Of a stretch of DNA of 64,000 nucleotides, positions 9,660-60,094 are shown in pieces (position 1 is the stretch's first letter; each line of letters starts with the position of its first letter). The translations under genes and the position numbers were made by a program. The DNA lies in contig CAVRET010000002.1 of assembly GCA_963720265.1 (NCBI GenBank), positions 750,069 to 814,068 of the forward strand, in the 5' to 3' direction. The notes beneath the pieces were generated by a model that was not told the DNA's origin, ran no database searches, and worked only from the letters and a program-made list of their open reading frames with translations. Source of the DNA: an uncultured bacterium. GTDB taxonomy: Bacteria; Patescibacteriota; Saccharimonadia; UBA4664.

Positions 9660-9696
9660 CGCCACATCCCTTCGTGTGTGCTGAGGCGTGAACAAT

Positions 9697-10279: not shown

Positions 10280-10329
10280 GTCGAAAAACTCCTCTCGTCT
10301 CGGCAGTCAGGTACGATTCGCGGGACACA

Positions 10330-10358
10330 ATTATCCACCAAAATGAAGCATTTTTCAA
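10330..10358 (-). promoter_or_regulatory. sigma70-like promoter TTGAAA-17-GATAAT for 9965..10279
   Basis: Minus-strand -35 is plus 10353-10358 and -10 is plus 10330-10335, with an exact 17-nt spacer. It sits in an AT-rich divergent intergenic region. Confidence 0.35.
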
Positions 10359-15943: not shown

Positions 15944-16012
15944 TAGGAGGAAACAGCAATAGCGGACGCAAAACTGGACCCCTATATCGCGCGTGACGGC
16001 GACACCAAGCCA

Positions 16013-18266: not shown

Positions 18267-18315
18267 ACTTTCACTATACTCGGTAAAGCTGGGAGCATCC
18301 TGGTACAATCTTCCT

Positions 18316-24062: not shown

Positions 24063-24067
24063 CGACG

Positions 24068-24868: not shown

Positions 24869-24880
24869 CCGAGTATCATC

Positions 24881-41460: not shown

Positions 41461-42567
41461 ATGAGACGTTATCACTTGCTTCCCTCGATTACTCGTCCCA
41501 AAACCTTTCTCAGCCTTATTCTCAGCACCATTGCCGCAGTGGCAATGGTGGGCGCCGGCGGACTTACCAACTATGCGCAAGCTAGCGGCTCAGCCACGCT
41601 CTATTTCACACCATCATCAGGCACGTATACCGTTGGCCAGACGCTGACCGTCACAATCTATACCAACACTGGCGGCGATCCGGTCAATGCAGTTGAGGCC
41701 GACTTTTCGTATCCCACCTCAACACTGACATTCCAAAGCATTGACGGTAGCAGCTCGGCCTTCGGCATCTCGGCCTCTCAAACCGGTGGTGGTGGTACGG
41801 TTAAAATCGCCCGTGGCAACACGAGCGGACTTACCGGCACAGAGCTCGTGGCGGTTGTGCATTTCACGGTCAGCGCTGCCGGCTCAGGATCACTGAGCTA
41901 TCTCGGCTCGTCCGCGGTGGTACGCAGCACCGATAACCAAAACGTCCTCAGCTCCACTTCCGGCGCCAGCTTTACCCTTGCGGCCGCGTCAACGCCGACT
42001 TCCACGCCCAAGCCTTCAGGCTCCACTCACACTCCCACACCGGCTCCAAGCAGCGGCAGCAAGACCAGTCCCACCCCGAAGCCGTCATCATCCGCCTCGC
42101 CAACGCCCTCAGCCGCCGCCGGCACAACAAGTAACACGCCCAGCCCAACGCCCATCAGTATTAATACCTCGCCCACCCCGGCGCCATCACACAGCTCGAC
42201 CAAAATCTTGGGCATTGCCGCCCTTGGCATTCCGATTCTAGCCCTCCTCGTCCTTGGTGCATTTATTCTCAGCCGCTCGCACATCCCGAGTGTGGCGTCA
42301 CACGGCGCTGACAGCGACGCATTGCCTCTCACCCCGCCCGTTACGCCGTCTGCTCCGACCATGCCGGTAAACGGCACAGCATTGCCGCCCACGCCACCAC
42401 CACCGTCGCCACAGGCACCAGTGCCACCAAGCCAGCCAGTCCCGCCAAGCCAGCCGGCGCCACCGAGCCAAACCACCCCGCCAAGTGGGCCCACCCCGCC
42501 GGCCGCCCAGCCGCCAAACCAGACATTTTACCCGGACGCCAACTCCAAGCACGACGGCCCCGCATGA
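41461..42567 (+). CDS. membrane-anchored cohesin-domain protein with Pro/Thr/Ser-rich linker (scaffoldin-like)
   Basis: Signal peptide, a cohesin-like domain (ATLYFTPSSGTYTVGQTLTVTIYTNTGGDPVNAVEADFSY...), and a long PT/S linker. It also has a TM helix (ILGIAALGIPILALLVLGAFIL) and a Pro-rich tail. Its stop overlaps the next start by ATGA. Confidence 0.6.
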   Translation: MRRYHLLPSITRPKTFLSLILSTIAAVAMVGAGGLTNYAQASGSATLYFTPSSGTYTVGQTLTVTIYTNTGGDPVNAVEADFSYPTSTLTFQSIDGSSSAFGISASQTGGGGTVKIARGNTSGLTGTELVAVVHFTVSAAGSGSLSYLGSSAVVRSTDNQNVLSSTSGASFTLAAASTPTSTPKPSGSTHTPTPAPSSGSKTSPTPKPSSSASPTPSAAAGTTSNTPSPTPISINTSPTPAPSHSSTKILGIAALGIPILALLVLGAFILSRSHIPSVASHGADSDALPLTPPVTPSAPTMPVNGTALPPTPPPPSPQAPVPPSQPVPPSQPAPPSQTTPPSGPTPPAAQPPNQTFYPDANSKHDGPA

Positions 42568-45500: not shown

Positions 45501-45677
45501 TCGTCTTCGCCCTCGGGCACAACAGGCGACCTCAACAACGATGGCCAAGTCAATATCTTCGACCTTTCTATTCTCCTCAGCGACTGGGGTACCAATAATG
45601 CCACTGCCGACCTTAACCACGACGGCACGGTGAATGTTTTCGACCTTTCCATTCTTCTCAGCCATTGGGGGACCTAG
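42564..45677 (+). CDS. dockerin-bearing right-handed parallel beta-helix protein (putative polysaccharide-active enzyme)
   Basis: C-terminal tandem dockerin repeats DLNNDGQVNIFDLSILLSDWG and DLNHDGTVNVFDLSILLSHWG (DxNxDGxVNxxD calcium loops). The centre holds PbH1-like beta-helix repeats (NAFVNDGIGDSGFAIWLDNGNTGTLISGNFF...). N-terminal signal/TM. Confidence 0.7.
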   Translation: MTPRLISPRHGQGLKSMLAQQKALSWATLVPLVALCVVVGLVLRPHSRADQVDGVNYEICNEGSQYLTSPWTYDALASGSQSYTVAQYEALSGYGTTLPPLPSYISSQDSTTEAAVIYAPGSTVNEPAYNFPNTPIVSFFEGGAYNDIGFDSVSGDQFIGGSAAGYPEPAFDDGGNAEGIDGQNATFDFSGGASTLTATANSGATTITTADAIPGYIADLTFTDGSTYPIGNVSGTTITLDSPLTSSESAGSAVWANRQAPIGKVASGASQGATSVTLDSSALPLVQYGNIRIGADNYTLSSVSGNQSGYTVGVPGLDTALAAGTPIYYDGMAGDVTVSYLNINNDQHTTTGTIYTGSGWTITHDNIHDGYSKGPGYGVALYGGDEGTIEYNCLSKMGDYGENIFGTGSKFDYNEVYESNYQPDPGCGCSGGGKWWGTLNSDIVDNAFVNDGIGDSGFAIWLDNGNTGTLISGNFFNQTAGPAISSETGFNLDITDNLFENDNWGTGDGCGNSNCTGDVGLNSSGGFNIPGSRYNNQISISDNQFIDDWGGVGIWQSGARSCENSGEGWPQDAPYCSGGFPNSSNTSNGGQYYFSHIADTQYGGASNAVVQAASSGSTTLLVNGSMATDDQIGIGDPASTTTASTTDVTSLAGSQTINAASTTGFPSSGQLRVGTSAAWSDAGGSYTGAILSYTGTTGTSFTGVSLVRGSGTLAGPILQVQPYKITGETCYANDCALTITPGLSASAAAGAEVSNAGTCQLYATSAATPTSPLAPNGTSYFDGCQWGTKNISITSNNFIFDPTTMAASAPLSGGKTTTSCTADHNNDCGTNFMAYQEAGEPPFSTFIGGNAMYSNSALTSCPSWDSGCSSSPLKNINALSNPPDAPANNGEAANNDVWSDNTYSGPWAWNAYSYGGCDEPSDPTTNKSMPAGACSVDFSDWQTDWQQDAGSTYSASPQPTPTTTATPTVSATPTPSATPSSSPSGTTGDLNNDGQVNIFDLSILLSDWGTNNATADLNHDGTVNVFDLSILLSHWGT

Positions 45678-45689
45678 CGGGAAACACTA

Positions 45690-47174
45690 ATGAAAATCAC
45701 ACGTTTACATCCAGACACCCTTCTAAAGCACGGCAGTCGGATACAGACCGGGGTCTTAAGCCTGGTTGTGGCAGCCGTAGTGGTGGCCGGCGCCTACGTT
45801 GTGAGCCACAGTTTTGCCGACACCAACCAGCTGTACCTTAGTCCGTCCAGCGGCACCGTGCTGCAGGGCAATACGGTCAGCGTGGCAATCCATGAAGATT
45901 CCGGCACGACGGGCGTCAACGCCGTCCAGGCCAACCTAAGTTATGATCCGGCTGAATTTGAATTCGAAAGCATCGATGCCAGTAACAGTGCGTTTGGTGT
46001 AGAGGCCGAGTCCACCGGCGGCAACGGCACTGTAACCATTGCCCGCGGCGTCACCGGCGGCAGCGCCCCACTCACTGGCGATCAGCTGGTGGCCACGGTT
46101 ACGTTCACGGCTTTAGGCAGTGGCGTGAGCGGAGATATTAACTTCGCCAGTGGTTCGGCCGTCGTATCGGCATCCGACAACACCAACATTGTCCAGTCAA
46201 CCGCCGGCGCCAGCTTCGATCTCACCGCACCGGCCACGCCGACGCCCACACCTACGCAAACTCCAGCGCCCACCGCCACCCCAACGCCGGCTCCCGCGCC
46301 CACACCCACAGCCACTCCCACGCCTGCGCCCGCGAGCGCCGGCACCATCTACCTCAATCCTGCCAGCGGTACGATCACAAATGGCTCCGACCTGATCTTT
46401 GATATCCACGAAGACTCCGGTTCCACGCCGGTCAACGCCGTCCAGGCCAACTATGATTATTCCACCAGTGATTTCCAATATGTTTCAATTTCAGCCGCAA
46501 ATAGCGACTTTGCGGTCGAAGCCCAAACCTCGGGCGATAACGGCCAAATCCGCATTGCCCGCGGCGTCACCGGCGGCAGCGCCCCACTCACCGGCGACCA
46601 CATTGTGGCAACAGTCACGCTCAAAGCCGTTACTAGTGGTACCGCCGCCCTCACGGCCGCTTCCGGCTCGGCAATCGTCAGCTCCGACACTAATTCCAAT
46701 ATTCTCAGCAGTCAAACCGGCGGTAGCTACACGCTCACCGGCGGAACCGGTAGTAGTACAAGCACAACACCCGCGCCAACACCAAAACCTTCGTCACCCA
46801 CCCCGGTTTCAATTACCGGCGGCAGCGAACCCATTCCGGTGAGCGACACCATCCAACTCTCGAGCCCATCCCTTAGCTCTAGCGCCGCCACTACTTACAC
46901 GCTCGACGGGCAAAGCGTTAGCGGCGACACCGTCGACACCTCTGATCTGAGCGACGGCGACCACACCATTACCGCTACCCAAACCGTGAATGGCAAGACT
47001 ACTGAGGTCAAACAAACCATCTCGGTCCACAACAAGTCGGCCGGGTCCAATCCCTTCACGGTCGTTTTGGGTGCTGCCAAGCCGGCCTTGCCCTATATCG
47101 TGGTCGTAGTGATCGTAATACTGCTGGCAACCGCCGGCTTCGTGTTCATCCGCCGCGGACCAACCGGGATCTAG
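45690..47174 (+). CDS. membrane-anchored protein with two cohesin domains (scaffoldin-like)
   Basis: Two repeats of the cohesin-like module (GTVLQGNTVSVAIHEDSGTTGVNAVQANLSYDPAEFEFESID..; GTITNGSDLIFDIHEDSGSTPVNAVQANYDYSTSDFQYVSI..) separated by a TP-rich linker. C-terminal TM anchor. Confidence 0.6.
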   Translation: MKITRLHPDTLLKHGSRIQTGVLSLVVAAVVVAGAYVVSHSFADTNQLYLSPSSGTVLQGNTVSVAIHEDSGTTGVNAVQANLSYDPAEFEFESIDASNSAFGVEAESTGGNGTVTIARGVTGGSAPLTGDQLVATVTFTALGSGVSGDINFASGSAVVSASDNTNIVQSTAGASFDLTAPATPTPTPTQTPAPTATPTPAPAPTPTATPTPAPASAGTIYLNPASGTITNGSDLIFDIHEDSGSTPVNAVQANYDYSTSDFQYVSISAANSDFAVEAQTSGDNGQIRIARGVTGGSAPLTGDHIVATVTLKAVTSGTAALTAASGSAIVSSDTNSNILSSQTGGSYTLTGGTGSSTSTTPAPTPKPSSPTPVSITGGSEPIPVSDTIQLSSPSLSSSAATTYTLDGQSVSGDTVDTSDLSDGDHTITATQTVNGKTTEVKQTISVHNKSAGSNPFTVVLGAAKPALPYIVVVVIVILLATAGFVFIRRGPTGI

Positions 47175-47423: not shown

Positions 47424-50400
47424 CTACTGCGTCACAAAGTAGCTGTATTTGTAGGTAGTAGCACCAGACAAGTTGTTGCTGTTGGTTTCAAGGCTAAAGC
47501 CCGTGGTTGACGGCGACGTGTAATACTGCAGCGCCGAACCATTGGCTGCGGCCGGCGTCAGTACCACGTTGGGTGTAGCACCAAACACATTGGAAAACGT
47601 AATATCAGCCAAATCACCGGCCGCCGAGCATGGCCCCGCACCGGTCGTAATAGTAATCGTGCCGCTGGTATCATCGCCGGTCACACTCACACTGGCAGTC
47701 CCGCTGCAATTCGCCGCCGCTCCGGCCGCAATGCCGGGCGTGCTGCCGCCGGTAATAATATGGCCGTCAACCGTTAGGTTGGCCGTCACCACGAGCGAGC
47801 TGACCGTAACCGTCATGGTCGTGGTATCGGCTGTCAGCACTGCTGCGCCCATTTGATTTTGAACCTGGAAAGCCGAGGTCGAATCAGTCGGAGTTTTAAT
47901 GAGCGTTTGCCCCAGCCCACTCACCTCAAACACGGATTGATCCGCGGCGTTGCGAATCATTACTCCCTCATCCGCGGTGTTCTGCACCGTCAGCACCGTA
48001 GCCGATTTTGTCACAATGTTGGCCCCAGTCACGTTCGACCCTTCGCGGCCGATTGTCCAAGCTGTATCCGACGGCCCGTTAAGGTAAATCGCCTGGTTGT
48101 TATCCAGCGAAACGTTGCCGTTTGCGATCTGCAAAGCTTGCTGCGGCGCCGACGTGCCGATACCAACATTGCCGCTGCGGTCAATTACCAGGCTGTCGCT
48201 TAGGCTATCGGTCGTAGAATCTGCCACCGGATTAATCGGCACACCAATGTCGGCCCAATCGGCGGTATCAACAAACCAGCTCATATCAACATTACCGCCG
48301 GTGCCGGGCGCATCAGCGCCGCCCTCGCCGTACACCGACGATGTATTTGGCAGGTACCACATTTGGCTCTGAGTGTCGGCGCTGTAGAGGCTGCTATTGT
48401 TGTTCGTCACACCAATCGCATCGACTACCAATTGCGATGTGCTGGTCGTGGGCACCAAAAGATTCGTTGCCTGGTAACCGGTTGTGGTACCGCTAGCCGT
48501 GGCAAACGTGCCCAGCGGCGTGGTTTGATCAACGTTGTAGAACGTGGCCGCACCAATCGAGCCGGTGCCGGCTGAACTCATGGTGGCAACGATATCATAG
48601 CTACCACTCGGCGGATTCAAAAGGTACCACAGCTCAACATGCGCGCCCACCGGATCAACCACCTGCGGCGAGTTTTTGGCTGCAATCTGCGTCAGCGCCA
48701 AGCCGTTATAGGTGACCGCGGTGAATGTGCGCTGCTGATTCGTCTCAACTTGCACTAGCATCAACCGGTTACTTTCGGAGCCGGTTGTAAAGCCGCTTAG
48801 GGTAACCGTGCTGCTGCCAAAGCTTGCAATCTCCCCCGTGTTATCAACGGTTACCGCGCTAGCGCCGGGCTTAGCGGTCCGGAAGATAAACGAGCCCGAG
48901 CCGGCAGCACCAGTGCCGTTAGAAGCGTCGAATGTAATATTGCCGCCACTGGCGTTGGTGCCCGTCGCCTCCCCACCGCGCACGGTCAAATCTTGCGGCG
49001 TTCCATCTTGCCCCAAAATAATCGCCATATCGGTCGTATCTGCGGAAATAAGCGACGCTCCGGCGGCATTCTGGATCGCAAAGGCGTCCGTTGAATCGGC
49101 CGGATCCTTAAACACTGCCGAACCCTCAACGTCTAAGTTGGCACTTGGCGTGGTGGTACCGATGCCAACCGATGCGGTGCTACCGGTAAAGAAGCCGGAG
49201 TCGGCAGCCAGCGTCTGAGACTGGATGGAATTGAGCGCAGTTGGTATGACTGCTACTTCGGCGATTTCGCCGGTAAACGGACCGTTAAAGGGGTCGTCGC
49301 CAATATACCACGAGCCCGTGTAGCTCTGAGGTGTATTGTACGAAGGGTTCGAGGCTACCAATTGGCCGTCTACGTAGAGATACATGCCGGCGCTGGACAC
49401 GCTGGCAACCGCGATATGCCAACTGCCGTCATTGACGGCCGCCGAACTTGTAATTACTTCGTTGCCAAGAATGTTGTTATAAATGCGGAAATTCAACTTG
49501 CCGCTGCCGTCAATAAAGAGTTCCCTATCATGTGCAGCGCCGCCAACGCCGCCGATCAGCTCGCCCTCGTTAGTGGTATTAAACATTACGACCTGGCTAA
49601 ACGTTGTCGGCAGGGTTGCGGAATTCGCCGTCGTAATTTCACTCGGGCTGGCTGAATTAAATGCCATCGCTGGTTGTGTATTGTCGCACGAGAATGGGCC
49701 CGGGGTCTGGTTCGTGGTGACATTCGAGAGCGTGCCGGTGTTGTTATTGCCCGAGCTGTCGGCTCCCGTAGCACCGGTATCATCAAGCTTCCAATACGCG
49801 TCAGGCGCAAAACTGTCCACATAGTTCTCATAAGTGGAGACTCCACAGTTGGTGGGTGCGTTAACAGTTAGGGTGCCGTTACCCGAATCAAAGTTTAGCG
49901 ACGGATTACCGCTGGCATTTTGAACCTGGAAAGCCGAAGACGAATCAGTGCCGGGCTGAACGATCACGCTTCCACCCGCGCCGGTCCCGGCAGCGGCCCC
50001 GCTTTGCAATACCAAGTTGCCGCCGTTGCCATTGCCGCCGGCGTTCCCGGCCGCAATCGTCAAATCACCGCCAGTCCCACCGGAGCCGGCAATCTTCCAA
50101 GTCGAACTGGTAGCGGCTGTAATGTCGAGCGCGCCGGTGGTAGTGGTGTAACTAGCGCCGCCGGACGTAGCGGCAATATTTGCACCGCTAATGTTAATAA
50201 AACCACTGCCGCCACTGATGTTCACGCCGCCGCCATAAATCGAGGTCGGCGCGAGCATTGCGGAGTTGCCAATAGTTATTTCTTGCGCGTTCGTGGCGCC
50301 CAGGTCGAGCGCTGCCGTCGCCGAAGACGAACTAAGATCAGTAATCGTAACGTCATCAATGTAGTGCACCTCCCCAATAGTCTGGGCGTCGTTGGCTGAG

Positions 50401-51752
50401 AAGTAATAGCCCATCTCCGTTGCACCCACCGGCGCCGTTAATACGCCTACGACTTTGCGCCAACCGGTTGAAATATCCGTAACCGTCCCGAAGTCCTGCG
50501 TCGAAATTGCGCCGCCGCCGTAATATCCGTTACTTGACCATGTCACTCCGGCGGTGATGTTGTCCGAGTTTGTGGCCGCCCGCACCCAAGCCTCAACGGC
50601 GTAGGTATGGCCCTGGGTAACCGGAATAATCATTGGTGGATTTGTTATACCGTCTGCGGTTTCCCATCTCGGAAAGTAGTTGCTGCCAACGGCGATTGAC
50701 AAGCTGTGGGTACCGCTGTGGGCCTGGGCATTCGTTTGGGTTATAACCGAATTGTCGCCAAAGATGCCGTCGCCCATGTTGTCAATGCCGTCCTCGAATG
50801 TCTTATCGTCGATCAAGGTGCCTGATAGCACGCTATTTCCGGTATCAATTGAGACATTGCCGGCCGCTGTCGTGGACGAATCTCCGGACTGGAGGGTAAT
50901 ATTACCGCTCGAGCCGGTGCTGCTGCCGGTGATAATGGCGACATCTCCGGTACCACCTTGCAACAATGCGGCACTGGCACCCTCGGCTGAACCCAAACTC
51001 ACATTTTCCACGCCGTTGCCGGTACTCAGGTTGTTGCCGCTTTGAGTCACCATTGAGCTGCCAAGCGTCGTGGCATCGGTGAAGTAGGCGAGTGATCCCG
51101 CGGTTCCGCCCACGGCCGCCACTCCGCCGCCCGCGCTGTTAGTTACGTTCGTAACATCGGTAAGATTGGTGACGTTTGTGGTATTGCCGGCCTGGTTCGT
51201 TACATTTGTGACATTGTTGGTCACATTACCGCCGCCCAGCAGATTTAAGAACTGCTTACCGTTGTAATACTCCAGTACGTTACCGGTCTGATCATAATAC
51301 AGCTCACCGGCGACCGCCGAGGTCGGCTGCGAGCTCGGTACAAGCACGATCGGGCCGGTGACGTTAAGCTGGCCGTTGACAGTCAACTGCCGGCCGCCAG
51401 CTGTCTGCCCGGCTGCCAGCGACTGGCTAACGTCTGCCAGTGGCACTGATTGCGAGGTCGGCAATTGGGCAAGCAGCGCCGAGCTGGCCGCCGGCGGATT
51501 GTTCGCCGCTGAGGCCACAAAATACACGCCGGCCCCAAACGCCGCAATGATGAGCGCAAACCCGGCCATGCGCTGAAGTGACATGAACGGCTTTTTGTCG
51601 CTCGGCCGGGGTGGTTGCGGGCTTGGGTGCGTCTCATCGGCTGACTGCACCGGTGTCGCCTCTGGCACGGCCTGTAGATTCTCCGGCTTCTCATACGTTG
51701 CGTCATGGTTGAGATCAATTGGCTGGTTTGAGCCTGGGGTAATATCGTTCAT
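47424..51752 (-). CDS. giant surface protein (1442 aa), paralog 2
   Basis: Start ATG 51752 overlaps the upstream stop by ATGA. N-terminal cytoplasmic stretch plus TM (FMSLQRMAGFALIIAAFGAGVYF), then an NVTNNVTNVTN repeat stalk and LamG-like lectin regions. The conserved C-terminal domain is shared with 51749..59131. Confidence 0.7.
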   Translation of the reverse strand: MNDITPGSNQPIDLNHDATYEKPENLQAVPEATPVQSADETHPSPQPPRPSDKKPFMSLQRMAGFALIIAAFGAGVYFVASAANNPPAASSALLAQLPTSQSVPLADVSQSLAAGQTAGGRQLTVNGQLNVTGPIVLVPSSQPTSAVAGELYYDQTGNVLEYYNGKQFLNLLGGGNVTNNVTNVTNQAGNTTNVTNLTDVTNVTNSAGGGVAAVGGTAGSLAYFTDATTLGSSMVTQSGNNLSTGNGVENVSLGSAEGASAALLQGGTGDVAIITGSSTGSSGNITLQSGDSSTTAAGNVSIDTGNSVLSGTLIDDKTFEDGIDNMGDGIFGDNSVITQTNAQAHSGTHSLSIAVGSNYFPRWETADGITNPPMIIPVTQGHTYAVEAWVRAATNSDNITAGVTWSSNGYYGGGAISTQDFGTVTDISTGWRKVVGVLTAPVGATEMGYYFSANDAQTIGEVHYIDDVTITDLSSSSATAALDLGATNAQEITIGNSAMLAPTSIYGGGVNISGGSGFINISGANIAATSGGASYTTTTGALDITAATSSTWKIAGSGGTGGDLTIAAGNAGGNGNGGNLVLQSGAAAGTGAGGSVIVQPGTDSSSAFQVQNASGNPSLNFDSGNGTLTVNAPTNCGVSTYENYVDSFAPDAYWKLDDTGATGADSSGNNNTGTLSNVTTNQTPGPFSCDNTQPAMAFNSASPSEITTANSATLPTTFSQVVMFNTTNEGELIGGVGGAAHDRELFIDGSGKLNFRIYNNILGNEVITSSAAVNDGSWHIAVASVSSAGMYLYVDGQLVASNPSYNTPQSYTGSWYIGDDPFNGPFTGEIAEVAVIPTALNSIQSQTLAADSGFFTGSTASVGIGTTTPSANLDVEGSAVFKDPADSTDAFAIQNAAGASLISADTTDMAIILGQDGTPQDLTVRGGEATGTNASGGNITFDASNGTGAAGSGSFIFRTAKPGASAVTVDNTGEIASFGSSTVTLSGFTTGSESNRLMLVQVETNQQRTFTAVTYNGLALTQIAAKNSPQVVDPVGAHVELWYLLNPPSGSYDIVATMSSAGTGSIGAATFYNVDQTTPLGTFATASGTTTGYQATNLLVPTTSTSQLVVDAIGVTNNNSSLYSADTQSQMWYLPNTSSVYGEGGADAPGTGGNVDMSWFVDTADWADIGVPINPVADSTTDSLSDSLVIDRSGNVGIGTSAPQQALQIANGNVSLDNNQAIYLNGPSDTAWTIGREGSNVTGANIVTKSATVLTVQNTADEGVMIRNAADQSVFEVSGLGQTLIKTPTDSTSAFQVQNQMGAAVLTADTTTMTVTVSSLVVTANLTVDGHIITGGSTPGIAAGAAANCSGTASVSVTGDDTSGTITITTGAGPCSAAGDLADITFSNVFGATPNVVLTPAAANGSALQYYTSPSTTGFSLETNSNNLSGATTYKYSYFVTQ

Positions 51753-54700
51753 TGTGCCACCCAATAGTTCCATTCATAGGTCGACGTATTCGACGGAGTT
51801 GTGCCGGTGCCAAGGTCAAAACTGGTGGGGGAAACAGTACTGTCGTCAACGTATGCGTTAAGTGCTGCGGCATTAGATCCGCCGGCCGTCAGCGTTACGT
51901 GCGGCGCAGCGCCAAACGCTGTCGCAAACGTGATGGTGGCAAGCTTCCCGCTGGCGGAGCAGCCCGACCCGGTCGTAATCGTAATGGTACCGCTCGTGTC
52001 ATCGCCGGCTACACTCACGGTTGGGCTGGTGCAAGCAGCGGTCCCGGCCGCAATCCCGGGCGTGCTCCCGCCGGTAATCACGTGACCGTCCACCGTTAGG
52101 TCGGCCGAAACGGTGAGCGCCGTCACGGTCACGATCATGTGAGTCGTGTCGGCGGTCAGCAACGGGGTATTGCCGGTATTCTGTACCACAAAGGCCGTCG
52201 CTGAATCGCTAGAGTTTTGGAACGTAGTCGCGCCGTTGCCGTCGATTGACACCACCGGAGTACCACCGTTGTTTTCGATCTGAAGCGTCTCAAACGGAGA
52301 GCTCGTCGATGCCACGTTTTGCAGCGTGAAGCTGTCGTACGCTGTCGCTGAGCCGTTCCAGTAATTACTCAAAAGCTGCAGGCCGTCAGAGTTTGCTGTC
52401 GGCACGAAAGAAGTGGCATTGGTGGGTGCTTGTAATTGCACGTCATGATCAACAGTGTCGACGTCAAATTCGGGTGCACCACCGCTGTCCATAACCCCGA
52501 ACGCGCCGAGTGAATTAACATACCCGACGCTCGTAGTGCCTGATACTTGTAGTGCGGAAACGGTCGGCGCGGTGTCGATACCCACCCGGCCATTAACCGT
52601 GTCCACGTCAATGACATCTGAGCCGGTGGCATCTTGCACCTGGAACGCAGATGTGGAATCAGTGCTATTTTGTAGGGTCGCTGCGCCGCTGGTCGTCAGG
52701 TTGAAGAGCGAACCGTGGAAGATGTCGCTCGTGCCACTGTACGAGCCGTAGATCGCCAAGTGGTAGTTGCCGTTGCCGTCATCGGTGCCGTTGCCAAACC
52801 AACTCGCATTCCAGGTACCAGGGGTTACACTGCCCTGGAAAAAGTCGGAGCCGCTGCCATCACACGTCGCGTAAAATACATCGCCTGAGCTCGACGTTCC
52901 GATGACCAGCCAGTAATTGGTACCGACCGTAACATTGAGCGGAGTATCGAGCGTAATATTGTTCCAGTTTGGACTGCCAGGCGACGGCGCAGTGATTGTC
53001 TGTGTGCCGGTGTGTTGGTCGAGGAGGGTTCCTGGCGTGCCCGCATTATCGCTGTAGATAGCCACGGAAAACGGGTCCCCGCCGCCGCTGTCAAACGCCA
53101 CGTTAAGCGACGTCAGCGTGCCGTTGGCCTGGGCCGTATACTGTGTTGTCTGGTCCTCGTTAGAGTTACTGTCATTGCACGAATTCGTCATACTGGCGAG
53201 ATTGTTGCCAATCACAACCGCTTGCTGAGCCGTTGCTGCTGAGTTGATGTTAAATGAATCGCCGGCATTTGGATTCACGCCCTCGTAGAAACTCGTGTTG
53301 GCATCAGCCAGTTGAATCGACGAATCGCCCGACCCCGCCTGCTGCACCGTTAGCTGCGAGGCGGTCGTAGTGTCGTTGTTGGACTGGACAACGACGCCGG
53401 TATTGCCCGAGGCCGCGCCGAGCGTGACCGTCTGGTTTGTTCCGTCCACCGAGATTAGGTTCACCCCGGCGGCAGTCTGCACCTGGAATGCGGTGCTGGT
53501 ATTGTTGGGGTCACGGAATAGCGCCGTACCTTCGTCGTCAATGTTGGCCTGCGGAGAAGTCGTGCCAACACCGATTGACGCCAGCTCAGCGTTATACACG
53601 CCCGCATCTGTCGCCAGCGTCTGAATCTGCGGTGCTGTAACAACCGAAAGCGAAACGGCAGCCTGCGAGATCTCGCCGTCAAAAGCGGTATTGCTCATAT
53701 TGGGCCAACTGGCGCCAAAGGAATTGCCGATCCACCAAGTGCCGTTGGTGTAGTCGGCCGGGTTATTGTAGCCGGGATTTGCCCCCACCAGCCGGCCGTC
53801 TAGGTATAAGAACAAGCCGCTGCTTGATTCAGTCACGACCGCCATGTGCCAATTGCCGTCTGCCACCGAGCCCGCACTTGATATTACCTGTACGCCCTGG
53901 CCGTTGTTGAAAATCCCTGCATACAGCCGGCCGTCTGTGCCGACGTACATCTCACGGTCCCAAGACGTTACGTTATCGCTAAACGATTCCAACACGCCGC
54001 TTCCGCCGTTGGTCTTAAACAATGCGATCTCGCTGTAGACATTCGGCGAATTGATTGCGTTTGGTGTGGTAATTTGGCTGTTGCTGGCGCTACTAAACAA
54101 CATCGCTGGATGGCTTGGGGCGCACGTGAATGCACCCGGTGTCTGGTCGGGCGTCACATTGGAAAGCGTGCCGTCGTTGCCGTTGCCGGAACTATCGACC
54201 GCGGTCGAGCCGGTGTCCTCCAGCTTCCAGTACGATGCCGGGCTCAAGCCGTTCATAGCGCTTACATAATCCGAATAATCACACCCGGCAGTATTATTAA
54301 CGATTAAATTACCGGTGTCATTTATGTCGTCGTTTGCCGTATCGGCCGTAAACAACGCATTGCCGGCAGCGTCCTGAATCTGGAAAGCTTGGGTTGAATC
54401 AGATGCATCTTGGAAATTGGCATCCCCACCAACATCTAGCGTATGGGTCGGATTCGAAGTGCCGACGCCGACGCCGTTGCTTCCGATAACCAGGCTATCA
54501 CTCAACGTGTCGGTTATAGAGTTAGAAGTCGGGTTAATTGGTACGCCAATGTCCGCCCAGTCGGCGTTGTTAACCGACCAGTTCATGTTGACCGTGCCAC
54601 CAGTACCAGGAGCATACGACCCGGCCGCCGGCCAATTGCCGCCGGACGGCGGTTGGTTCCAGATCTGAGTCTGGCCCGGGTTGACCGTCGGGTCATCGCC

Positions 54701-57700
54701 GTCTGTCCCAATGCCATCAACTACCAGCTGGGCCGCGCTGGTTGTCACAACATTAAGGCTCGTCGACTGCAATCCCGTGGTCGTGCCGCTGGCAGTCGCA
54801 ACCGTACCAAACGGCGTGGTTTGGTCCACATTGTAGTACGACGATGCACCGATCAGCATACCGGTACAGTTCGGAATGTTGGCCAATACGTCATGAGTGC
54901 CCGAGGGCGGGTTGAGCAGGTACCACATCTCAACATCAACCGAGTTATCCTTAACAGCCAATTGCGTCAGCGGGAAGCCATCGTAGCTGACCGAGGTATA
55001 GTTCACATCCGAGATGACCGTGACGACAAGCACACGGTTGGACTGGCTGCCCGTGGTAAAGCTCAATTTGGCCTCACCACAGTTGCCGTCGTCGCCAATC
55101 TCGTTGCCCGTGTTATCCAATGTCACTGCACTCCCGCTGGGCTTGGCCGTCCGGAATATAAATGAGCCCGACCCGCCGGCACCGGTGCCGTTCGAAGCAT
55201 CGAATGTAATGTTGGCACCGCTGGCGTTGGTGCCGGTGGCCGCCCCGCCCCTCACCGTGAGGTCGGTCGGCGTGTCGTCTTGACCAAACACAATAGCATT
55301 GTTTGTGGTGTCGGCGGTGAGCAATGAATTACCGGCAGAGTCTTGGATCTGGAAAGCAGTGGGTGAGTCAGTGGTGGACTGGACAAGATCAACGCTACCC
55401 AAATACTGAGTCACGCCGGATCCCTGAAAGGTGAGCAGGCCGCCACCGGTATTGCCGACGGTGACATCGTTGGCGTTCGCGGTACCGATGTCGACATTGG
55501 CGTTAGTATCCGCAAGAACGTCGATCCCGGCGCCGCCCCCCAGCAGGGATGTCAGGCCGGCTTGCTGATAGTTACCGATATTGATTGCCTGGGCGTTAGT
55601 AGCGCCGATATTTATGCTGGGCGAAGCAACAGTGGAAAGATCGGTGACGGTGGCGTCGTCAATGTACTGAATTTGGCCGTTTGTGCCATTGGACGCTGCA
55701 AACTGGAGGTCCATTTGCTCGTTTGGATGGCCGGGATTGACGGCCGGCGCCACGACATTACCGAAAAGATGGGTCCAGCCGGTAGTGGTGTCGGTGGCCG
55801 ACGCCCACGTTGTGGTGCCTGCCTGGCCATTCCACCATTGCACCTGGCCACTAATGGTCTCGGCAACGGTGTCGGCTCGAATCCAAGCAGACAGGGCGTA
55901 GATGTGACCTGGGGTCACCGTAGGTCCGAGTCCGCCCCCTTGTGTGGTGGCCCAGAGTCCTGAGCCTTGCTCAGTTACAGCGAGGCTGTGAGTACCGCCG
56001 TGGGCCTGGGCGGTGGATTGAGCGACCGACACATTAATGTAGTTGCCGAAGTTCTCGGTACTGCTCTCAAAGGTAAAGTCGCTGATTTGGGTGCCACTGG
56101 GAGTGTTGGCTCCGTTGTCGATGGTGACATTGCCGGAGTTGCCGGTGGATGAATCTCCGGTCTGGATGCCGATCCCGGCAGTGGTGCCGGTACCCGAGCC
56201 GGTGTTAATGGCAACGCCACCGGTACCGCCTTGAATCGTCACGCCGCCGGAACCGGCGTAAATTGAAGTGGTCGCAGCCCCATTAGTCGTACCAAGGGTA
56301 ACCGCTGAGTTGGTGGAGTCGACGCTGAGGAGTGTGTTACTGCCGGAGGCATTTTTAACCTGGAAAGCGCTTGTTGAATCAGAGGTCGGCTGGACAGTGA
56401 TGCTCGAGCCGGTATCAGTGATAGACGAATCGCCAACCGTCGTGCCCGAGCCGGTAAATTTGGCTAGCTTGTCGGCCGTGCCCGAGCCGCCGACCCCTCC
56501 ACCACCTCCGCCGATACTACAATTGCCGAGAGTAAACAAACATACCGTATCAGTCGTGCCACCTGGAATCGACGGGAACTGAATGGTAGCATTGCCGGTG
56601 CTGCTCGGGCTCAAACCCTGCAAAGCCACGGTTTGCGTCGTGCCTGCGTTGGCCAATGTAAGTTGTCCGGCCAAGCTCCCGGGAGTGCCAAGCACAACCT
56701 GGTCGGCGTTCGTATCCACGGTAAAAACACTATTCCCGGACGCATCCTGCACCTGAAATGCCTGGCTCGTATCAGTTGGATCCTGAAAAACCGCTGCTCC
56801 ATCCTGTGTCAGCGTGCCCGACGGTCCGATAATCGTCGCCGGGCCGTTGGTGGTGTAGCTGGCATACATCGAGTACAACGAGCCGGTAGACACTGAGCCG
56901 GACGGATACGTGGCCGGTAAGCCGTTGTCTGGGCCGCTTTGCCACGTGTTCGCGACCCCATCGACTGTGGCCGACGGGAAGCCGTTTGAGTAGGTGATGG
57001 TGTCGTTCCCATTGGCCCAAAACACTAACCAATAACTCGTGTTCGCGAGCACATTCACCGGGCTGGTCAGGCTCAACGTGTTCCAGCCCGACGGTGAAGT
57101 CAGCGTACCGATGCCGGTTGAACCGACGTAATTGCCGGGTACGCCGCCGTTATCGTCATAAATCGCGAGCTGATATTGATTGTTGGGTGACACCGTTTGG
57201 CCGACGCCAATGTAAACTGACATCGAGCCCAGCGTACCGGCCACGCCGGTGGTAAACTTAAATGCCGCTAGCGTTCCCGGAGTAATGGCCGACCCGACGT
57301 TGGATCCTTCGCTGGTGCTGCCCAGTGCCCCGCCCGCGCCCACGCCTAAGCTTACCTCGCGGTCGGTTGAATCAGCTGTTAGCAAATTAATCCCGCCCGC
57401 CGACTGCACTTGGAAATCGGTCGTCGTATCCGACTGTGGCTTCACAATCACACCCCCGGCGGTCCCGCCCCCGGCGCCGAGCGTAAGCGAACCGCTCGTG
57501 GTACTAAAGCTTGACGCTCCTGAACCGTCCACGGTAATCGCGCCGCCGTTCACGTCAATGTTCGCAGTCCCCGCGTTAAGGTTAATACCGCTGCCGCCGT
57601 CAATCGTTGTTGGCGCAACCTCGTTCATGTTCCCGATCGACACCACCTGAGCATTGTTCGCACCCAAATCAAGCTCAGACGAAGATGACCCCGAGCTAAG

Positions 57701-59131
57701 GTCGGTCACGGTGAGGTCATCAATGTACTGCGTGCCGTTGCTAGTACCACCCGTACCACCGATCCTGAATTGGCCTGTGATAGCACCAGCCGGAGCGACT
57801 CCGCTAGCGGTTAGCTGGGTCCAACCGGCAGTCGTTGTTGTAACAACCGGAAACGCTAGAAAGCTCGTATCAAACCCAAGGCCGCCGCCGCCCCAAATCA
57901 GCGCCCCGGTGATCGGCGTACCGGTCGTTGCGGCCTTCACCCACATGCTAATGAAGTAATGATGGCCCGCGGTTACGCTGACGTCATCCGGATTGTTCTG
58001 GAGAATACCCCAGAAGGCATTCCCAGTAACGGCCAAACTACAGTTACCGCTATGCGACACCGTGCAGTCTTGCGCCGTGGTCGAGGGCAGGATCCACGGC
58101 TCAATGCCGTCAATCCCAGTTTCAAAGTCGTTGTCCTGCACCACGGTGCCGCTCACAAATCCAGCTCCGGTATCGACCGTCACATTACCCGCCGCTGTGG
58201 TAGCGGAGGTGCCGCTTTCAAGCGTAATGTTACCGCTGGCCCCGGCCGCCGTTCCGGTGGTAAGGGCAAGCCCGCCGGTTCCGCCCTGCACCGACGTTGC
58301 CGCCGCTCCGTTACCCGAACCCACGGCCACACTCTGCACGCCGTTACCAGTGCCGACGTTCAGGATTGTGCCACCTACGTCAAGGGTTGTGCCGCTCTCG
58401 TTAATAAGCGAATCACTGAGGCTGTCGGCGGTTGCAAAGTAGGCCAAATCACCCGGCGTTCCGGTACCGGCCACGCCGCCGCCACCCCCGTTGGTAACAT
58501 TTGTCACATCTGTCAGATTGGTGACGTTGGTCGTATTGCCGGCTACATTGGTAACGTTGTTCGTTACATTGCCGCCACCCTGCAAGTTCACAAATTGCTT
58601 GCCGTTATAGTAGGACAGCAAGTTACTCGTCGAATCGTAATACAATTCGCCGGCTGTGGCACCTGTAGGCTGGGAACTTGGCACAAGCACCAACGGCCCA
58701 GCAACACTCAGCTGGCCGTTGACCGTGAGCTGCCGCGCGGTCGCTGATTGCGATGCCGACAAACTCTGGCTCAAAGCGGCCAGCGGGATCGATTGCGATG
58801 ATAATTCAGCAAGCGCGGTCGTGGTTGAGGCCACCGGCTTGCCCTGGGCCGAAGCATAAATGAGAGTGCCGATACCAAACGCGGCCACAATCAAAGCAAA
58901 TCCGCTCATGCGCTTAAGCGACATGAACGGCTTGTTACCCCCCGGCCGCTGTGGCGTAGGCGTCTGTTCCGACGCTTCCGGTGCCGCTCCTTCTCCTAGG
59001 CCAACCGGTAACGACTCTGCCTGCGGAATCGACGACAACCCAGCCGGTTCCGCTGCCGGATCCGACTGCGTAATCTCACGGTTACTTAGATCAACCGCGT
59101 GATTCGCACCCTTGGTAACGTCATTGTTCAT
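51749..59131 (-). CDS. giant surface protein (2460 aa), paralog 1
   Basis: Same N-terminal architecture (MNNDVT..., FMSLKRMSGFALIVAAFGIGTLIY), an NVT-repeat stalk, multiple Gly/Thr/Ser-rich beta-rich modules and LamG-like regions. The conserved C-terminal about 110 aa (TVDGHVITGGSTPGIAAG...) ends YEWNYWVAQ. Confidence 0.7.
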   Translation of the reverse strand: MNNDVTKGANHAVDLSNREITQSDPAAEPAGLSSIPQAESLPVGLGEGAAPEASEQTPTPQRPGGNKPFMSLKRMSGFALIVAAFGIGTLIYASAQGKPVASTTTALAELSSQSIPLAALSQSLSASQSATARQLTVNGQLSVAGPLVLVPSSQPTGATAGELYYDSTSNLLSYYNGKQFVNLQGGGNVTNNVTNVAGNTTNVTNLTDVTNVTNGGGGGVAGTGTPGDLAYFATADSLSDSLINESGTTLDVGGTILNVGTGNGVQSVAVGSGNGAAATSVQGGTGGLALTTGTAAGASGNITLESGTSATTAAGNVTVDTGAGFVSGTVVQDNDFETGIDGIEPWILPSTTAQDCTVSHSGNCSLAVTGNAFWGILQNNPDDVSVTAGHHYFISMWVKAATTGTPITGALIWGGGGLGFDTSFLAFPVVTTTTAGWTQLTASGVAPAGAITGQFRIGGTGGTSNGTQYIDDLTVTDLSSGSSSSELDLGANNAQVVSIGNMNEVAPTTIDGGSGINLNAGTANIDVNGGAITVDGSGASSFSTTSGSLTLGAGGGTAGGVIVKPQSDTTTDFQVQSAGGINLLTADSTDREVSLGVGAGGALGSTSEGSNVGSAITPGTLAAFKFTTGVAGTLGSMSVYIGVGQTVSPNNQYQLAIYDDNGGVPGNYVGSTGIGTLTSPSGWNTLSLTSPVNVLANTSYWLVFWANGNDTITYSNGFPSATVDGVANTWQSGPDNGLPATYPSGSVSTGSLYSMYASYTTNGPATIIGPSGTLTQDGAAVFQDPTDTSQAFQVQDASGNSVFTVDTNADQVVLGTPGSLAGQLTLANAGTTQTVALQGLSPSSTGNATIQFPSIPGGTTDTVCLFTLGNCSIGGGGGGVGGSGTADKLAKFTGSGTTVGDSSITDTGSSITVQPTSDSTSAFQVKNASGSNTLLSVDSTNSAVTLGTTNGAATTSIYAGSGGVTIQGGTGGVAINTGSGTGTTAGIGIQTGDSSTGNSGNVTIDNGANTPSGTQISDFTFESSTENFGNYINVSVAQSTAQAHGGTHSLAVTEQGSGLWATTQGGGLGPTVTPGHIYALSAWIRADTVAETISGQVQWWNGQAGTTTWASATDTTTGWTHLFGNVVAPAVNPGHPNEQMDLQFAASNGTNGQIQYIDDATVTDLSTVASPSINIGATNAQAINIGNYQQAGLTSLLGGGAGIDVLADTNANVDIGTANANDVTVGNTGGGLLTFQGSGVTQYLGSVDLVQSTTDSPTAFQIQDSAGNSLLTADTTNNAIVFGQDDTPTDLTVRGGAATGTNASGANITFDASNGTGAGGSGSFIFRTAKPSGSAVTLDNTGNEIGDDGNCGEAKLSFTTGSQSNRVLVVTVISDVNYTSVSYDGFPLTQLAVKDNSVDVEMWYLLNPPSGTHDVLANIPNCTGMLIGASSYYNVDQTTPFGTVATASGTTTGLQSTSLNVVTTSAAQLVVDGIGTDGDDPTVNPGQTQIWNQPPSGGNWPAAGSYAPGTGGTVNMNWSVNNADWADIGVPINPTSNSITDTLSDSLVIGSNGVGVGTSNPTHTLDVGGDANFQDASDSTQAFQIQDAAGNALFTADTANDDINDTGNLIVNNTAGCDYSDYVSAMNGLSPASYWKLEDTGSTAVDSSGNGNDGTLSNVTPDQTPGAFTCAPSHPAMLFSSASNSQITTPNAINSPNVYSEIALFKTNGGSGVLESFSDNVTSWDREMYVGTDGRLYAGIFNNGQGVQVISSAGSVADGNWHMAVVTESSSGLFLYLDGRLVGANPGYNNPADYTNGTWWIGNSFGASWPNMSNTAFDGEISQAAVSLSVVTAPQIQTLATDAGVYNAELASIGVGTTSPQANIDDEGTALFRDPNNTSTAFQVQTAAGVNLISVDGTNQTVTLGAASGNTGVVVQSNNDTTTASQLTVQQAGSGDSSIQLADANTSFYEGVNPNAGDSFNINSAATAQQAVVIGNNLASMTNSCNDSNSNEDQTTQYTAQANGTLTSLNVAFDSGGGDPFSVAIYSDNAGTPGTLLDQHTGTQTITAPSPGSPNWNNITLDTPLNVTVGTNYWLVIGTSSSGDVFYATCDGSGSDFFQGSVTPGTWNASWFGNGTDDGNGNYHLAIYGSYSGTSDIFHGSLFNLTTSGAATLQNSTDSTSAFQVQDATGSDVIDVDTVNGRVGIDTAPTVSALQVSGTTSVGYVNSLGAFGVMDSGGAPEFDVDTVDHDVQLQAPTNATSFVPTANSDGLQLLSNYWNGSATAYDSFTLQNVASTSSPFETLQIENNGGTPVVSIDGNGATTFQNSSDSATAFVVQNTGNTPLLTADTTHMIVTVTALTVSADLTVDGHVITGGSTPGIAAGTAACTSPTVSVAGDDTSGTITITTGSGCSASGKLATITFATAFGAAPHVTLTAGGSNAAALNAYVDDSTVSPTSFDLGTGTTPSNTSTYEWNYWVAQ

Positions 59132-59174
59132 CCGCTTCGGATATCCACCTCAAACGTAACTTTGATACCCCCTA

Positions 59175-59203
59175 ATTATCGCTTATGCTCAAGATAAGCA
59201 CAA
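59175..59203 (-). promoter_or_regulatory. sigma70-like promoter TTGTGC-17-GATAAT upstream of giant genes
   Basis: Minus-strand -35 is plus 59198-59203 and -10 is plus 59175-59180, with a 17-nt spacer. GAGGTGG lies upstream of ATG 59131. Confidence 0.35.
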
Positions 59204-59242
59204 GCGTATTTGAAGGCATTTTTGCGGGGTTTTAATGGATTT

Positions 59243-60094
59243 CTAATTAGTCCAAACCACGGCAACGGCCGCAGCCAAACTCACGAGCAATACGCCGCAA
59301 GCTGCGATCAGCACGTCGATGAGCGCCCGCAGCAGTGTTCTCCTGGCTAGTGGATTGCGCCCCAGCGACACAATTTCACTCCGAATCGAGGTTGTCAGCA
59401 TGACCACGGTAATAATAAAGCCGAGTACGAGCGCCAACGCCGCCAACAAGACCCGCACAGGCGCCACCTGGCGGCCCGCCAAAGAGTTGGCCGCCGACTG
59501 CAATACCGGCGGCACAATGGTCGATAAACTGCCGCTCTGGGCTGCCGGATAGTAAGTAACATTAACTGCCACCGGCACGAGACCGACTTTAATGCTCACC
59601 TGGTGGCCGTCTTTGCCCGACACCGTTCTGGTCGCAGTCGTCACCGAACTCAAGCTGGTCTGGGCCACACCGATTGTGGCGCCCGACTGCGTGGCTTTCA
59701 TGCCAATACCATCGAGTGGCGAGATGGTAATTTTGTCGCCCACGACCACGGGACCATTAATGTCACTCACGAGTGCTAGCGTCGAGCCGCTTACAACCAC
59801 CTGCACGCTATTTTTGCCCGCGTCTGATAACTCCACGAGCGGACTTTGGGCGGCCACACCCACAAGGTTCGTGGCAGTGGTGCCGGCCTGGGCCGGTTCC
59901 ACTGTGCCCGAGCCACTGGACGTTAAACTGAGCAGCGTACCCTGTGCGATATTGCTACTCGCAGCCGTGTAGCTTTGCGAAATTGCCCCAGTGCTAGCCG
60001 CACTCACCGGCATTGCCGGCCAATACAGAGACACAAATGTCACCTGCAGCATTCCCAAAGCCGCCCATTTCCACCACACTTTGACCTTTACCAT
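59243..60094 (-). CDS. exported protein with C-terminal membrane anchors (284 aa)
   Basis: Start ATG 60094 (MVKVKVWWKWAALGMLQVTFVSLYWPAMPVSAAS signal peptide), a beta-rich Ser/Thr/Gly body and two C-terminal TM segments. The ORF-track N-terminal extension is Gly/Val low-complexity. Confidence 0.5.
   Translation of the reverse strand: MVKVKVWWKWAALGMLQVTFVSLYWPAMPVSAASTGAISQSYTAASSNIAQGTLLSLTSSGSGTVEPAQAGTTATNLVGVAAQSPLVELSDAGKNSVQVVVSGSTLALVSDINGPVVVGDKITISPLDGIGMKATQSGATIGVAQTSLSSVTTATRTVSGKDGHQVSIKVGLVPVAVNVTYYPAAQSGSLSTIVPPVLQSAANSLAGRQVAPVRVLLAALALVLGFIITVVMLTTSIRSEIVSLGRNPLARRTLLRALIDVLIAACGVLLVSLAAAVAVVWTN

Follow-up and report, generated by a model that had tools for sequence, protein, structure and literature searches.

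Giant modular proteins that carry binding domains away from a surface are known from the tail fibers and receptor-binding proteins of tailed phages and from the fibrillar adhesins of bacteria. In the recognition and holding of bacterial hosts by Saccharibacteria and other Patescibacteria, the factors implicated so far are type IV pili and a small number of proteins that are lectin-like or bear dockerins (PMC10633639, PMC12206443). The current study describes a locus that offers a concrete and testable candidate for this role, found in a 64-kb stretch of contig CAVRET010000002.1 (the whole stretch is referred to below as the window). The stretch belongs to the chromosome of a Saccharibacterium (TM7, Patescibacteria) and not to a phage or plasmid. 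The locus comprises two tandem genes for proteins of 2460 and 1442 amino acids (aa), here called the large and the small fiber, and an upstream gene for a membrane protein, here called the partner.

Like phage tail fibers and receptor-binding proteins with H-type-lectin or gp53-like tips, the window proteins are elongated, beta-rich and modular, with a conserved proximal end, swapped distal cassettes and a tip at the C-terminus. They share with them a mosaic evolution, and the model of their tip matches proteins of uncultured Caudovirales (E of about 1e-8, 28-40% identity). Unlike phage tail fibers, they are encoded at a conserved chromosomal position with no phage genes nearby, and a predicted N-terminal transmembrane helix replaces the baseplate-attachment domain. 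The H-type lectins, such as Helix pomatia agglutinin and discoidin II (PF09458), resemble the tip in being small beta-sandwiches, and part of the tips of the family match their Pfam model; the tips of the window, however, stay below its cut-off, compare with low structural scores and have an extra N-terminal beta-strand segment together with a lineage-specific Cys pair. Giant fibrillar adhesins (LPXTG proteins of Gram-positive bacteria, trimeric autotransporters and RTX adhesins) are likewise very long, repetitive and beta-rich, with distal binding domains and paralogs that carry different modules, and one family member (P0053) is labeled "trimeric autotransporter adhesin" by its source. The window proteins differ from them in their reversed polarity, with an N-terminal signal-anchor and a free C-terminus, in having no LPXTG motif, YadA-type barrel or RTX repeats, and in their dedicated partner. 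HMW1-type adhesins are N-glycosylated at N-x-S/T by the cytoplasmic glycosyltransferase HMW1C; they also hold many such sequons, whereas in the fibers the sequons are concentrated in one [V/I]-T-N run.

Within the same phylum, a role as host adhesins has been proposed for essential envelope proteins of Southlakia epibionticum that have lectin-like VCBS, fibronectin III and dockerin domains (PMC10633639). One essential protein of that species thus bears a dockerin, and a dockerin protein also adjoins the fibers here, but the domain families are different. Literature searches returned no description or name of the fiber family. Altogether, the giant modular lectin-bearing surface fiber is known as a kind, and the family described here differs by its polarity, its own junction motif, its own tip family, its dedicated partner and a phylum-wide link to an ATPase gene cluster.

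Gene pair and membrane anchor

The large fiber gene (51749..59131, minus strand; 2460 aa) and the small fiber gene (47424..51752, minus strand; 1442 aa) encode proteins identical to the public entries P0002 and P0001, respectively, which lie on a contig of 1,108,292 bp. Direct reading of the sequence places a stop/start ATGA overlap at 51749..51752, where the junction reads ...TGGGTGGCACAATGAACGAT (also written GGGTGGCACAATGAACGAT) and the TGA of the large gene (51751-51749) overlaps the ATG of the small one (51752-51750), with a Shine-Dalgarno-like GGGTGG motif 5 nt 5' of this ATG. Counted from its first ATG, the open reading frame (ORF) of the small gene would extend over 47424..51773 (minus strand) and encode 1449 aa. 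This model was set aside for that of 1442 aa because the start at 51752 gives an N-terminus, MNDITPG, homologous to those of the large fiber (MNNDVTKG), P0006 (MNNDLRGP) and P0007 (MNNDIRGP), and because the public gene call has the same length. Chance ORFs are excluded by the ORF lengths and by the more than 50 homologs found.

The initial annotation had described the two genes as tandem paralogs coupled by an ATGA overlap, and the overlap was confirmed by the junction sequence and the paralogy by four blocks of BLASTP similarity. The first block (large 3-588 vs small 2-623; 46% identity, E 8e-114) spans the motif KPFMSL(K/Q)RM(S/A)GFALI(V/I)AAFG and the NVT run. The shared N-terminal peptide, hydrophobic-anchor motif and NVT runs were found in both translations as originally quoted. 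The remaining blocks comprise a central region of about 340 aa (large 1255-1585 vs small 886-1224; 56% identity), a LamG region (large 1574-1905 vs small 599-914; 44%) and the last 195 or so residues (large 2268-2460 vs small 1254-1442; 52%). The overlap itself is present in the window and is not conserved, since the tandem fiber pair of the closest related locus (L001) is separated by a 38-bp spacer. Homology at the DNA level, also proposed at the outset for the N- and C-terminal regions, exists and is weak, amounting to 64-77% identity over 190-500 bp in blastn with a longest identical word of 14 nt, and Tandem Repeats Finder detected no significant tandem DNA repeat in the NVT region. On the same figures recombination or phase variation at the pair was rejected, contrary to its earlier description as recombination-prone, and a collapsed-repeat assembly artefact is excluded. 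Judged by this divergence, the pair is old and offers little substrate for homologous recombination.

The family was sampled as about 47 close homologs and 130 full-length tip-bearing proteins from a wider search, and all members with a source name belong to Candidatus Saccharimonadales. A hydropathy scan located the putative signal-anchor of the small fiber at residues 62-83 (51504..51569, minus strand), and the same scan combined with family statistics placed that of the large fiber at residues 75-95 (58847..58909, minus strand; MSGFALIVAAFGIGTLIYASA), after a 74-aa tail that ends in KR. Such a hydrophobic 19-mer occurs in 110 of the 130 full-length relatives, with a median start near residue 60. 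In these relatives the uncharged stretch spans 19-24 aa (median 22), and the 15-residue flanks hold 3.5 Lys and Arg residues before it against 1.75 after it. The tail ahead of the stretch is variable across the family (50-150 aa) and ends in R or K, while the residue directly after the stretch is usually R, K, H or N and the signal-peptidase motif A-x-A is not consistent, being absent from most relatives. The length of the stretch, the K/R bias before it, the residues that follow it and the inconsistency of A-x-A make the segment best read as an N-in signal-anchor, which favors the membrane anchor proposed in the initial annotation, with the caveat of an A-S-A motif in the window pair and P0033 that is weighed below. 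Neither of the C-termini (...TYEWNYWVAQ and ...TYKYSYFVTQ) has an LPXTG motif or a hydrophobic tail for sortase anchoring. Pfam scans of the full-length fibers and of their segments found no YadA-type beta-barrel, and the anchor lies at the N-terminus.

Neck, N-x-T run and body cassettes

About 85 residues beyond the anchor, the family shares a conserved neck (LTVNGQL...AG(Q/E)LYYD...YYNG), which is followed by an N/T/V-rich run of 35-55 aa (median 41) built from the unit [V/I]-T-N. In the large fiber the run lies directly after the neck sequence GELYYD...YYNGKQF, at residues 188-214 (58490..58570, minus strand). In the small fiber it occupies residues 176-205 (51138..51227, minus strand; NVTNNVTNVTNQAGNTTNVTNLTDVTNVTN) and contains seven N-x-T sequons against 2.3 expected from shuffles (p = 0.001). 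Composition-preserving shuffles of the run in 29 members gave 75.6 expected sequons where 134 were observed, while the rest of the two window proteins had no excess (25 vs 20.8 and 42 vs 41.3 expected). The sequons arise because [V/I]-T-N units abut. Thus, the stalk of NVT repeats suggested previously is present and does contain N-x-T sequons, but it is a short run of 30-45 aa whose conserved unit is [V/I]-T-N. The run may be glycosylated. No glycosyltransferase or oligosaccharyltransferase was identified among the scanned ORFs of the window.

The body of the fibers is rich in G, S and T and is divided into cassettes by a recurring junction, DSTSAFQVQN..G..LLTADT, which occurs eight times in the large fiber and three times in the small one. 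Full-length scans against Pfam, NCBIfam and PHROG gave few matches, and scanning by segments was needed because composition masks the domains in full-length searches. Considering the curated Pfam cut-offs (25.9 bits for CBM_4_9, PF02018; 27.6 for Laminin_G_3, PF13385; 28.4 for DUF4082, PF13313; 24 for H_lectin, PF09458), the small fiber holds a CBM_4_9 domain at residues 313-451 (50400..50816, minus strand; 27.7 bits, E 3.9e-6) and a Laminin_G_3 (ConA-like) domain at residues 730-842 (49227..49565, minus strand; 65.3 bits, E 9e-18). A second Laminin_G_3 domain lies in the large fiber at residues 1696-1837 (53621..54046, minus strand; 52.4 bits, E 8.5e-14, with segment 1600-1880 scanned alone). 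Both scores bear out the LamG/concanavalin-like segments of the initial annotation. Two further regions of the large fiber (about 336-478 and 1010-1130) fall below the CBM_4_9 threshold and were assigned by homology to the small fiber and relatives, among which P0004 has five copies of this domain (112 bits). Segment 575-800 of the large fiber resembles DUF4082 (22.2 bits, E 1.5e-4), and P0045 also stays just under the cut-off (28.0 bits); to judge from these scores, the resemblance is real though sub-threshold. Relatives carry up to five CBM_4_9 domains as well as DUF4082, LVIVD, H_lectin or SO2946-like_C cassettes, and the middle of the family is therefore combinatorial.

The central block shared by both fibers contains an all-beta domain of about 260 aa, here called SNR after its signature ...SNRLL.V....V.SVTYNG..LT....WYLLNPP.G.... 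The copy of the small fiber (residues 926-1190; 48183..48977, minus strand) was modeled by AlphaFold2 with a pLDDT of 87, and that of the large fiber (residues 1295-1549; 54485..55249, minus strand), delimited in a local jackhmmer run, is 56% identical to it. The domain also occurs in stand-alone proteins of 200-450 aa (among P0056-P0081) and as two or three repeats in P0028 and P0029. A search of its profile against PDB sequences (best match cytokine receptor-like factor 3, E 0.013) and a Foldseek search against PDB structures (best match P3 of PR772/PRD1, E 2e-3 with a TM-score of 0.2) yielded no assignment. SNR is an unassigned beta-sandwich with no sign of an enzyme. Full-length and segment-wise Pfam and NCBIfam scans found no catalytic domain in either fiber, and neither database holds a model for the neck, the junction, the SNR domain or the partner.

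C-terminal tip domain

The tip is a domain of about 115 aa at the extreme C-terminus that ends in Y-x-V-x-Q/E in 46 of 55 homologs. Alignment of tips assigns that of the large fiber (residues 2345-2460, ending NYWVAQ; 51752..52099, minus strand) to the subtype AAC.SPT...GCS...LNAYVDDS. The tip of the small fiber (residues 1326-1442, ending SYFVTQ; 47427..47777, minus strand), analyzed with AlphaFold2, Pfam, hhalign and BFVD, represents the subtype ANCSGT...GPCS...LQYY; its model (pLDDT 90) is a beta-sandwich with a beta-hairpin segment ahead of it. Ten of 25 aligned tips match the Pfam H_lectin model, with a best E-value of 5.5e-9 and a score of 34.1 bits for P0028 against the cut-off of 24, and hhalign links the profile of the window-type tips to this H_lectin-positive subgroup with 98.4% probability (E 7.5e-15).

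Matches to phage proteins were obtained among the predicted viral structures of BFVD, where the tip model found A0A6J5N1S0 (E 4.5e-9) and A0A6J5T5J5 (E 1.9e-8, TM-score 0.67, root-mean-square deviation 1.7 A, 40% identity), both from uncultured Caudovirales, followed at lower rank by entries named "tail fiber", "H-type lectin" and "gp53-like C-terminal". Overall, identity to proteins of uncultured tailed phages ranges from 28 to 43%. A scan of IMG/VR yielded one locus, L068 (UViG_3300044654_000030, 59 kb), in which the C-terminal 110 residues of a 246-aa protein (9617-10357) are 43% identical to the tip and have no Cys pair; two genes upstream of it match PHROG tail-fiber and virion-structural families weakly. 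Moreover, a junction-plus-tip profile retrieved 7380 representative clusters, 3459 of them at E <=1e-10, and in nearly all of the best 150 of these 7380 clusters the module stands at the very C-terminus of proteins of 130 to 3612 aa. The C-terminal domain noticed in the initial annotation is thus real. It is a distant H-type-lectin-like module that has no name of its own, is widespread and also has relatives among the proteins of tailed phages.

Proximal and distal parts of the fibers have different nearest relatives. Between paralogs of one genome, identity reaches 54% over transmembrane segment plus linker and 75% over the neck for P0001/P0002, and 64% and 70% for P0015/P0019, against maxima of 41% and 63% when other genomes are compared. 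The tip of the large fiber, in contrast, shares 71-73% identity with those of P0033, P0016 and P0007 and only 60% with that of the small fiber. Since N-termini are closest within a genome and tips group across genomes, the family appears to evolve as a mosaic, with a genome-specific proximal end and laterally shared distal modules, a pattern familiar from phage fibers.

Partner gene and ATPase genes

The partner gene (59243..60094, minus strand; 283 aa in translation) is separated from the large fiber gene by a spacer of 111 nt (59132..59242, minus strand), in which direct reading reveals a Shine-Dalgarno-like GAGGTGG motif 13 nt before the fiber ATG, and its product is 51% identical to those of genes directly upstream of fiber genes in the loci L001 and L002. 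The protein starts with a signal peptide; the exported domain that follows measures about 190 aa and contains the invariant motifs LVSDINGP and SP.SG.GMKA, and the C-terminal part is a two-helix membrane hairpin whose R-N-P loop is also invariant. At least 209 homologs exist, the 120 listed have no precomputed Pfam domain, and many share contigs with members of the fiber family. Synteny was scored with hidden Markov models (HMMs) in one genome per species, which gave 64 loci, almost all labeled Saccharibacteria or Saccharimonadia. A neighbor mentioned in the initial annotation simply as an exported protein is thereby better described as a conserved partner gene, with a fiber gene directly downstream in 16 of the 64 loci. 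Some partner-bearing contigs (among L012, L013, L018/L025 and L021) are labeled Woesebacteria, Magnetospirillaceae, Bacillota or Nanoarchaeia in records of metagenome-assembled genomes, probably through binning or labeling errors.

Three architectures were distinguished. In the first (type A, 16 loci) the fiber gene lies 39-270 bp downstream of the partner on the same strand; in one such locus, L047, ATPase genes come after the fiber gene. In the second (type B, eight loci) the partner is followed by b-like, delta, alpha, gamma and beta ATPase genes and then by a large fiber gene, all on one strand, and in the third (type C, about 29 loci) the same ATPase genes are followed by a convergent mini-fiber of about 350 aa. 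ATPase genes thus stand between partner and fiber or mini-fiber in about 37 of the 64 species loci. On the complete chromosome OY970322.1 (L052, 9851-17162), an example of type C, the partner lies directly upstream of the b-like, OSCP (delta), alpha, gamma and beta genes, with the mini-fiber (15990-17162, minus strand) at the far end. Mini-fibers measure 340-410 aa and combine the tail, anchor and tip of the family (ending NYIVEQ in L052) with a short repetitive shaft, and they may represent its minimal form. Within 10 kb on either side of the partner, none of the loci showed a canonical c subunit, no a or epsilon gene was found next to the ATPase cluster in the flanks of L052, and no ATPase alpha or beta gene was in view in the window or in the other type-A loci checked. 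A gene for MscL was also considered as a conserved neighbor and was dismissed, as it is seen only in L002/L003 and L052 and not in the window.

A contig holding two loci (L018/L025, DATIJU010000014.1) carries two partner-plus-giant cassettes about 12 kb apart, with fibers of 3288 and 2627 aa, and this tandem arrangement indicates that partner and fiber were duplicated as a unit. We read the partner as functionally tied to the fiber, since their adjacency survives where the ATPase genes are absent and since both have been duplicated together. The hairpin was also compared with the c subunit of F-type ATPases, in which an R-Q/N-P loop joins two helices, the first with a GxGxGxG motif and the second with a conserved carboxylate at its middle. 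This identity was rejected: the partner has no GxGxGxG, its Asp follows the Pro by 12 residues instead of about 18 and is a Gln in L052, an HMM of five c-subunit sequences reaches an E-value of 2.7 at best, and the partner profile finds no c subunit among all PDB sequences.

Proposed role and alternative explanations

Both genes would encode type II (N-in, C-out) membrane-anchored modular surface fibers of Candidatus Saccharimonadales, and a cell-surface role of the two proteins is plausible. According to this proposal, the Sec pathway would insert each fiber N-in through its single signal-anchor helix, after a short variable cytoplasmic tail; neck and N/T/V-rich spacer would span the cell-wall zone, and the long beta-rich shaft would project cassettes outward with the 115-aa tip at the free C-terminus. 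The fiber is probably trimeric, because H-type lectins and tail fibers are trimers. Through multivalent lectin-type binding, the cell could then fasten itself to glycans on a second cell, which would most likely be the epibiont's actinobacterial host. The two paralogs offer different cassette sets and two tip subtypes. The fibers are predicted to be co-expressed from one operon with the upstream partner, which probably helps to anchor or assemble them. We favor host adhesion through glycan-binding surface fibers as the most likely role, with moderate confidence, because cultured Saccharibacteria are epibionts of Actinobacteria and because epibiotic growth requires envelope proteins with lectin-like and dockerin domains (PMC10633639). 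The analysis shows the structure of the genes, their paralogy, their domain content, the architecture across the family, the homology of the tip and the conserved synteny. That the fibers are exposed at the surface, form trimers, bind glycans and adhere to a host, and what the partner does, we infer.

Several observations weigh against this interpretation. The H_lectin score of the small-fiber tip (14.5 bits, E 0.041) leaves the window proteins below the cut-off of 24, and Foldseek matches of the tip in the PDB, which include phage tailspike C-termini, Helix agglutinins, discoidin II and pyocin fibers, are weak (best E 0.037; Helix agglutinins E 0.17-0.5, TM-score 0.28-0.41); besides, the tip profile retrieved only chance antibody matches among PDB sequences. 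The matching phage proteins are in their turn uncharacterized, and none of 50,697 deposited phage genomes gave a tblastn match to the tip. The partner adjoins ATPase genes rather than a fiber gene in most Saccharibacteria, so coupling to the fiber is not the only way to read its synteny. Proteins that process polysaccharides typically carry CBM and LamG domains as well, so the ligand need not be a host cell. The fibers might accordingly be non-catalytic devices that capture environmental or host-derived polysaccharides, possibly with their neighbors as in a cellulosome, since immediately downstream and convergent with them lie genes for a 1037-aa protein whose C-terminus bears a type I dockerin (42564..45677, plus strand; Pfam Dockerin_1 E 1.1e-7) and a 494-aa cohesin protein (45690..47174, plus strand; Pfam Cohesin E 1.8e-11). 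An ortholog of the dockerin protein (score 1112) lies upstream of the partner gene near the fiber pair of L001, the closest relative, but in no other related locus, which weakens the 20-kb cell-surface island proposed in the initial annotation; the two genes are uncertain members of the fiber system. Capture of polysaccharides is unlikely though well worth keeping in mind, considering that no catalytic domain was found in the fibers, that Pfam scans detected cohesin and dockerin modules only in these two genes and none within the fibers, and that the phage-related tip points to binding of a cell-surface receptor. A different doubt concerns the anchor, given that an A-S-A motif directly follows the hydrophobic segment in the window pair and P0033 alone, creating plausible signal-peptidase sites that obey the -3/-1 rule (IYASA/QGKP in the large fiber, FVASA/ANNPP in the small one, FVFASA/QD in P0033) and would release the fiber. 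On this reading the segment would be a signal peptide that is preceded by a long extension and cut off, and the proteins would lack a membrane anchor once mature, being either secreted or retained by non-covalent contacts in the wall or in a coat resembling an S-layer. We consider this unlikely, as most family members have no A-x-A, stretches of 19-24 aa exceed the core of a typical signal peptide and are often followed directly by R or K, and the 50-150-aa tail ahead of them is kept as a feature across the family.

The phage affinities of the tip also raise the question of whether the genes encode tail fibers of a prophage or tailocin instead of cellular proteins, and weak PHROG matches point in the same direction (neck to phrog_8309, E 4.7e-4; L052 mini-fiber to a tail-fiber family, E 6.9e-4). 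Nevertheless, the full-length fibers match nothing among the PHROGs, no other phage genes lie nearby, the neighbors being enzymes of glycolysis and the pentose-phosphate pathway, cohesin and dockerin, and the proteins have an N-terminal membrane anchor and a chromosomal position beside the partner that is conserved in 64 species genomes. Such an origin is largely refuted by the anchor, the neighbors and this conserved position, and we regard it as extremely improbable. Additionally, fiber, partner and F1-type ATPase genes might form one module, a surface appendage driven or controlled by the ATPase; a loose parallel is the gliding of Mycoplasma mobile, where an F1-like ATPase operates with giant leg proteins. 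The order of partner, ATPase genes and then fiber (eight loci) or convergent mini-fiber with the same tip (about 29 loci) agrees with this idea, as do the c subunit missing from the surroundings of the partner, the lack of adjacent a and epsilon genes in L052 and the dispensability of ATP synthase in S. epibionticum (PMC10633639). On the other hand, in the window and 15 other loci no ATPase genes separate partner and fiber, nor do any occur in those flanks that were checked, a conserved order of genes may be passed on with no functional tie behind it, OSCP and b-like subunits indicate an ordinary F1Fo enzyme, and complete ATP synthase clusters with c subunits have been reported for some Saccharibacteria (bioRxiv 10.1101/2022.02.13.480300), so that a common module seems very improbable. 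A broader conjecture, to which we attach only a slim chance, is that fiber and partner make up a host-recognition organelle specific to Saccharibacteria, a membrane-rooted counterpart of the phage tail fiber that would swap tips and cassettes with phages, with genes placed ancestrally in the ATPase cluster and possibly coupled to the ATPase like the leg proteins of M. mobile.

The proteins are built like a receptor-binding fiber: the end near the membrane is conserved, the glycan-binding cassettes are interchangeable, and the tip has phage relatives. The repertoires of tips and cassettes could underlie host range and, to judge from the shared tip, epibionts and phages seem to recruit their receptor-binding domains from one pool. 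Moreover, mini-fibers and partner orthologs are widespread in Saccharibacteria, and the idea would be testable in tractable cultured strains if they are present there.

Genomic context and additional observations

The window has a GC content of about 58%, and tRNA and Rfam scans of it returned no matches. Its other genes include those for transketolase, class II aldolase, a PfkB kinase, G6PD, 6PGD, GAPDH and phosphoenolpyruvate (PEP)-utilizing enzymes. In the 14 kb upstream, where the large ORFs run on the plus strand, GC skew measures about -0.10 to -0.15, whereas the 11.7 kb of fiber genes on the minus strand (window positions 48000-58000) have values near zero (-0.02 to +0.04); this shift fits a switch of strand and not a foreign composition, because GC stays at 0.56-0.59. 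Two adjacent genes for luciferase-like monooxygenases (16390-18575, minus strand; Bac_luciferase E 5e-38 and 7e-56) are unexpected in a reduced patescibacterial genome. Finally, PPDK_N (ATP-binding) and PEP-utilizer mobile domains fall on two consecutive ORFs of 313 and 368 aa (23927-25987, plus strand), which could represent a split PEP synthase/PPDK-like enzyme or a frameshift.

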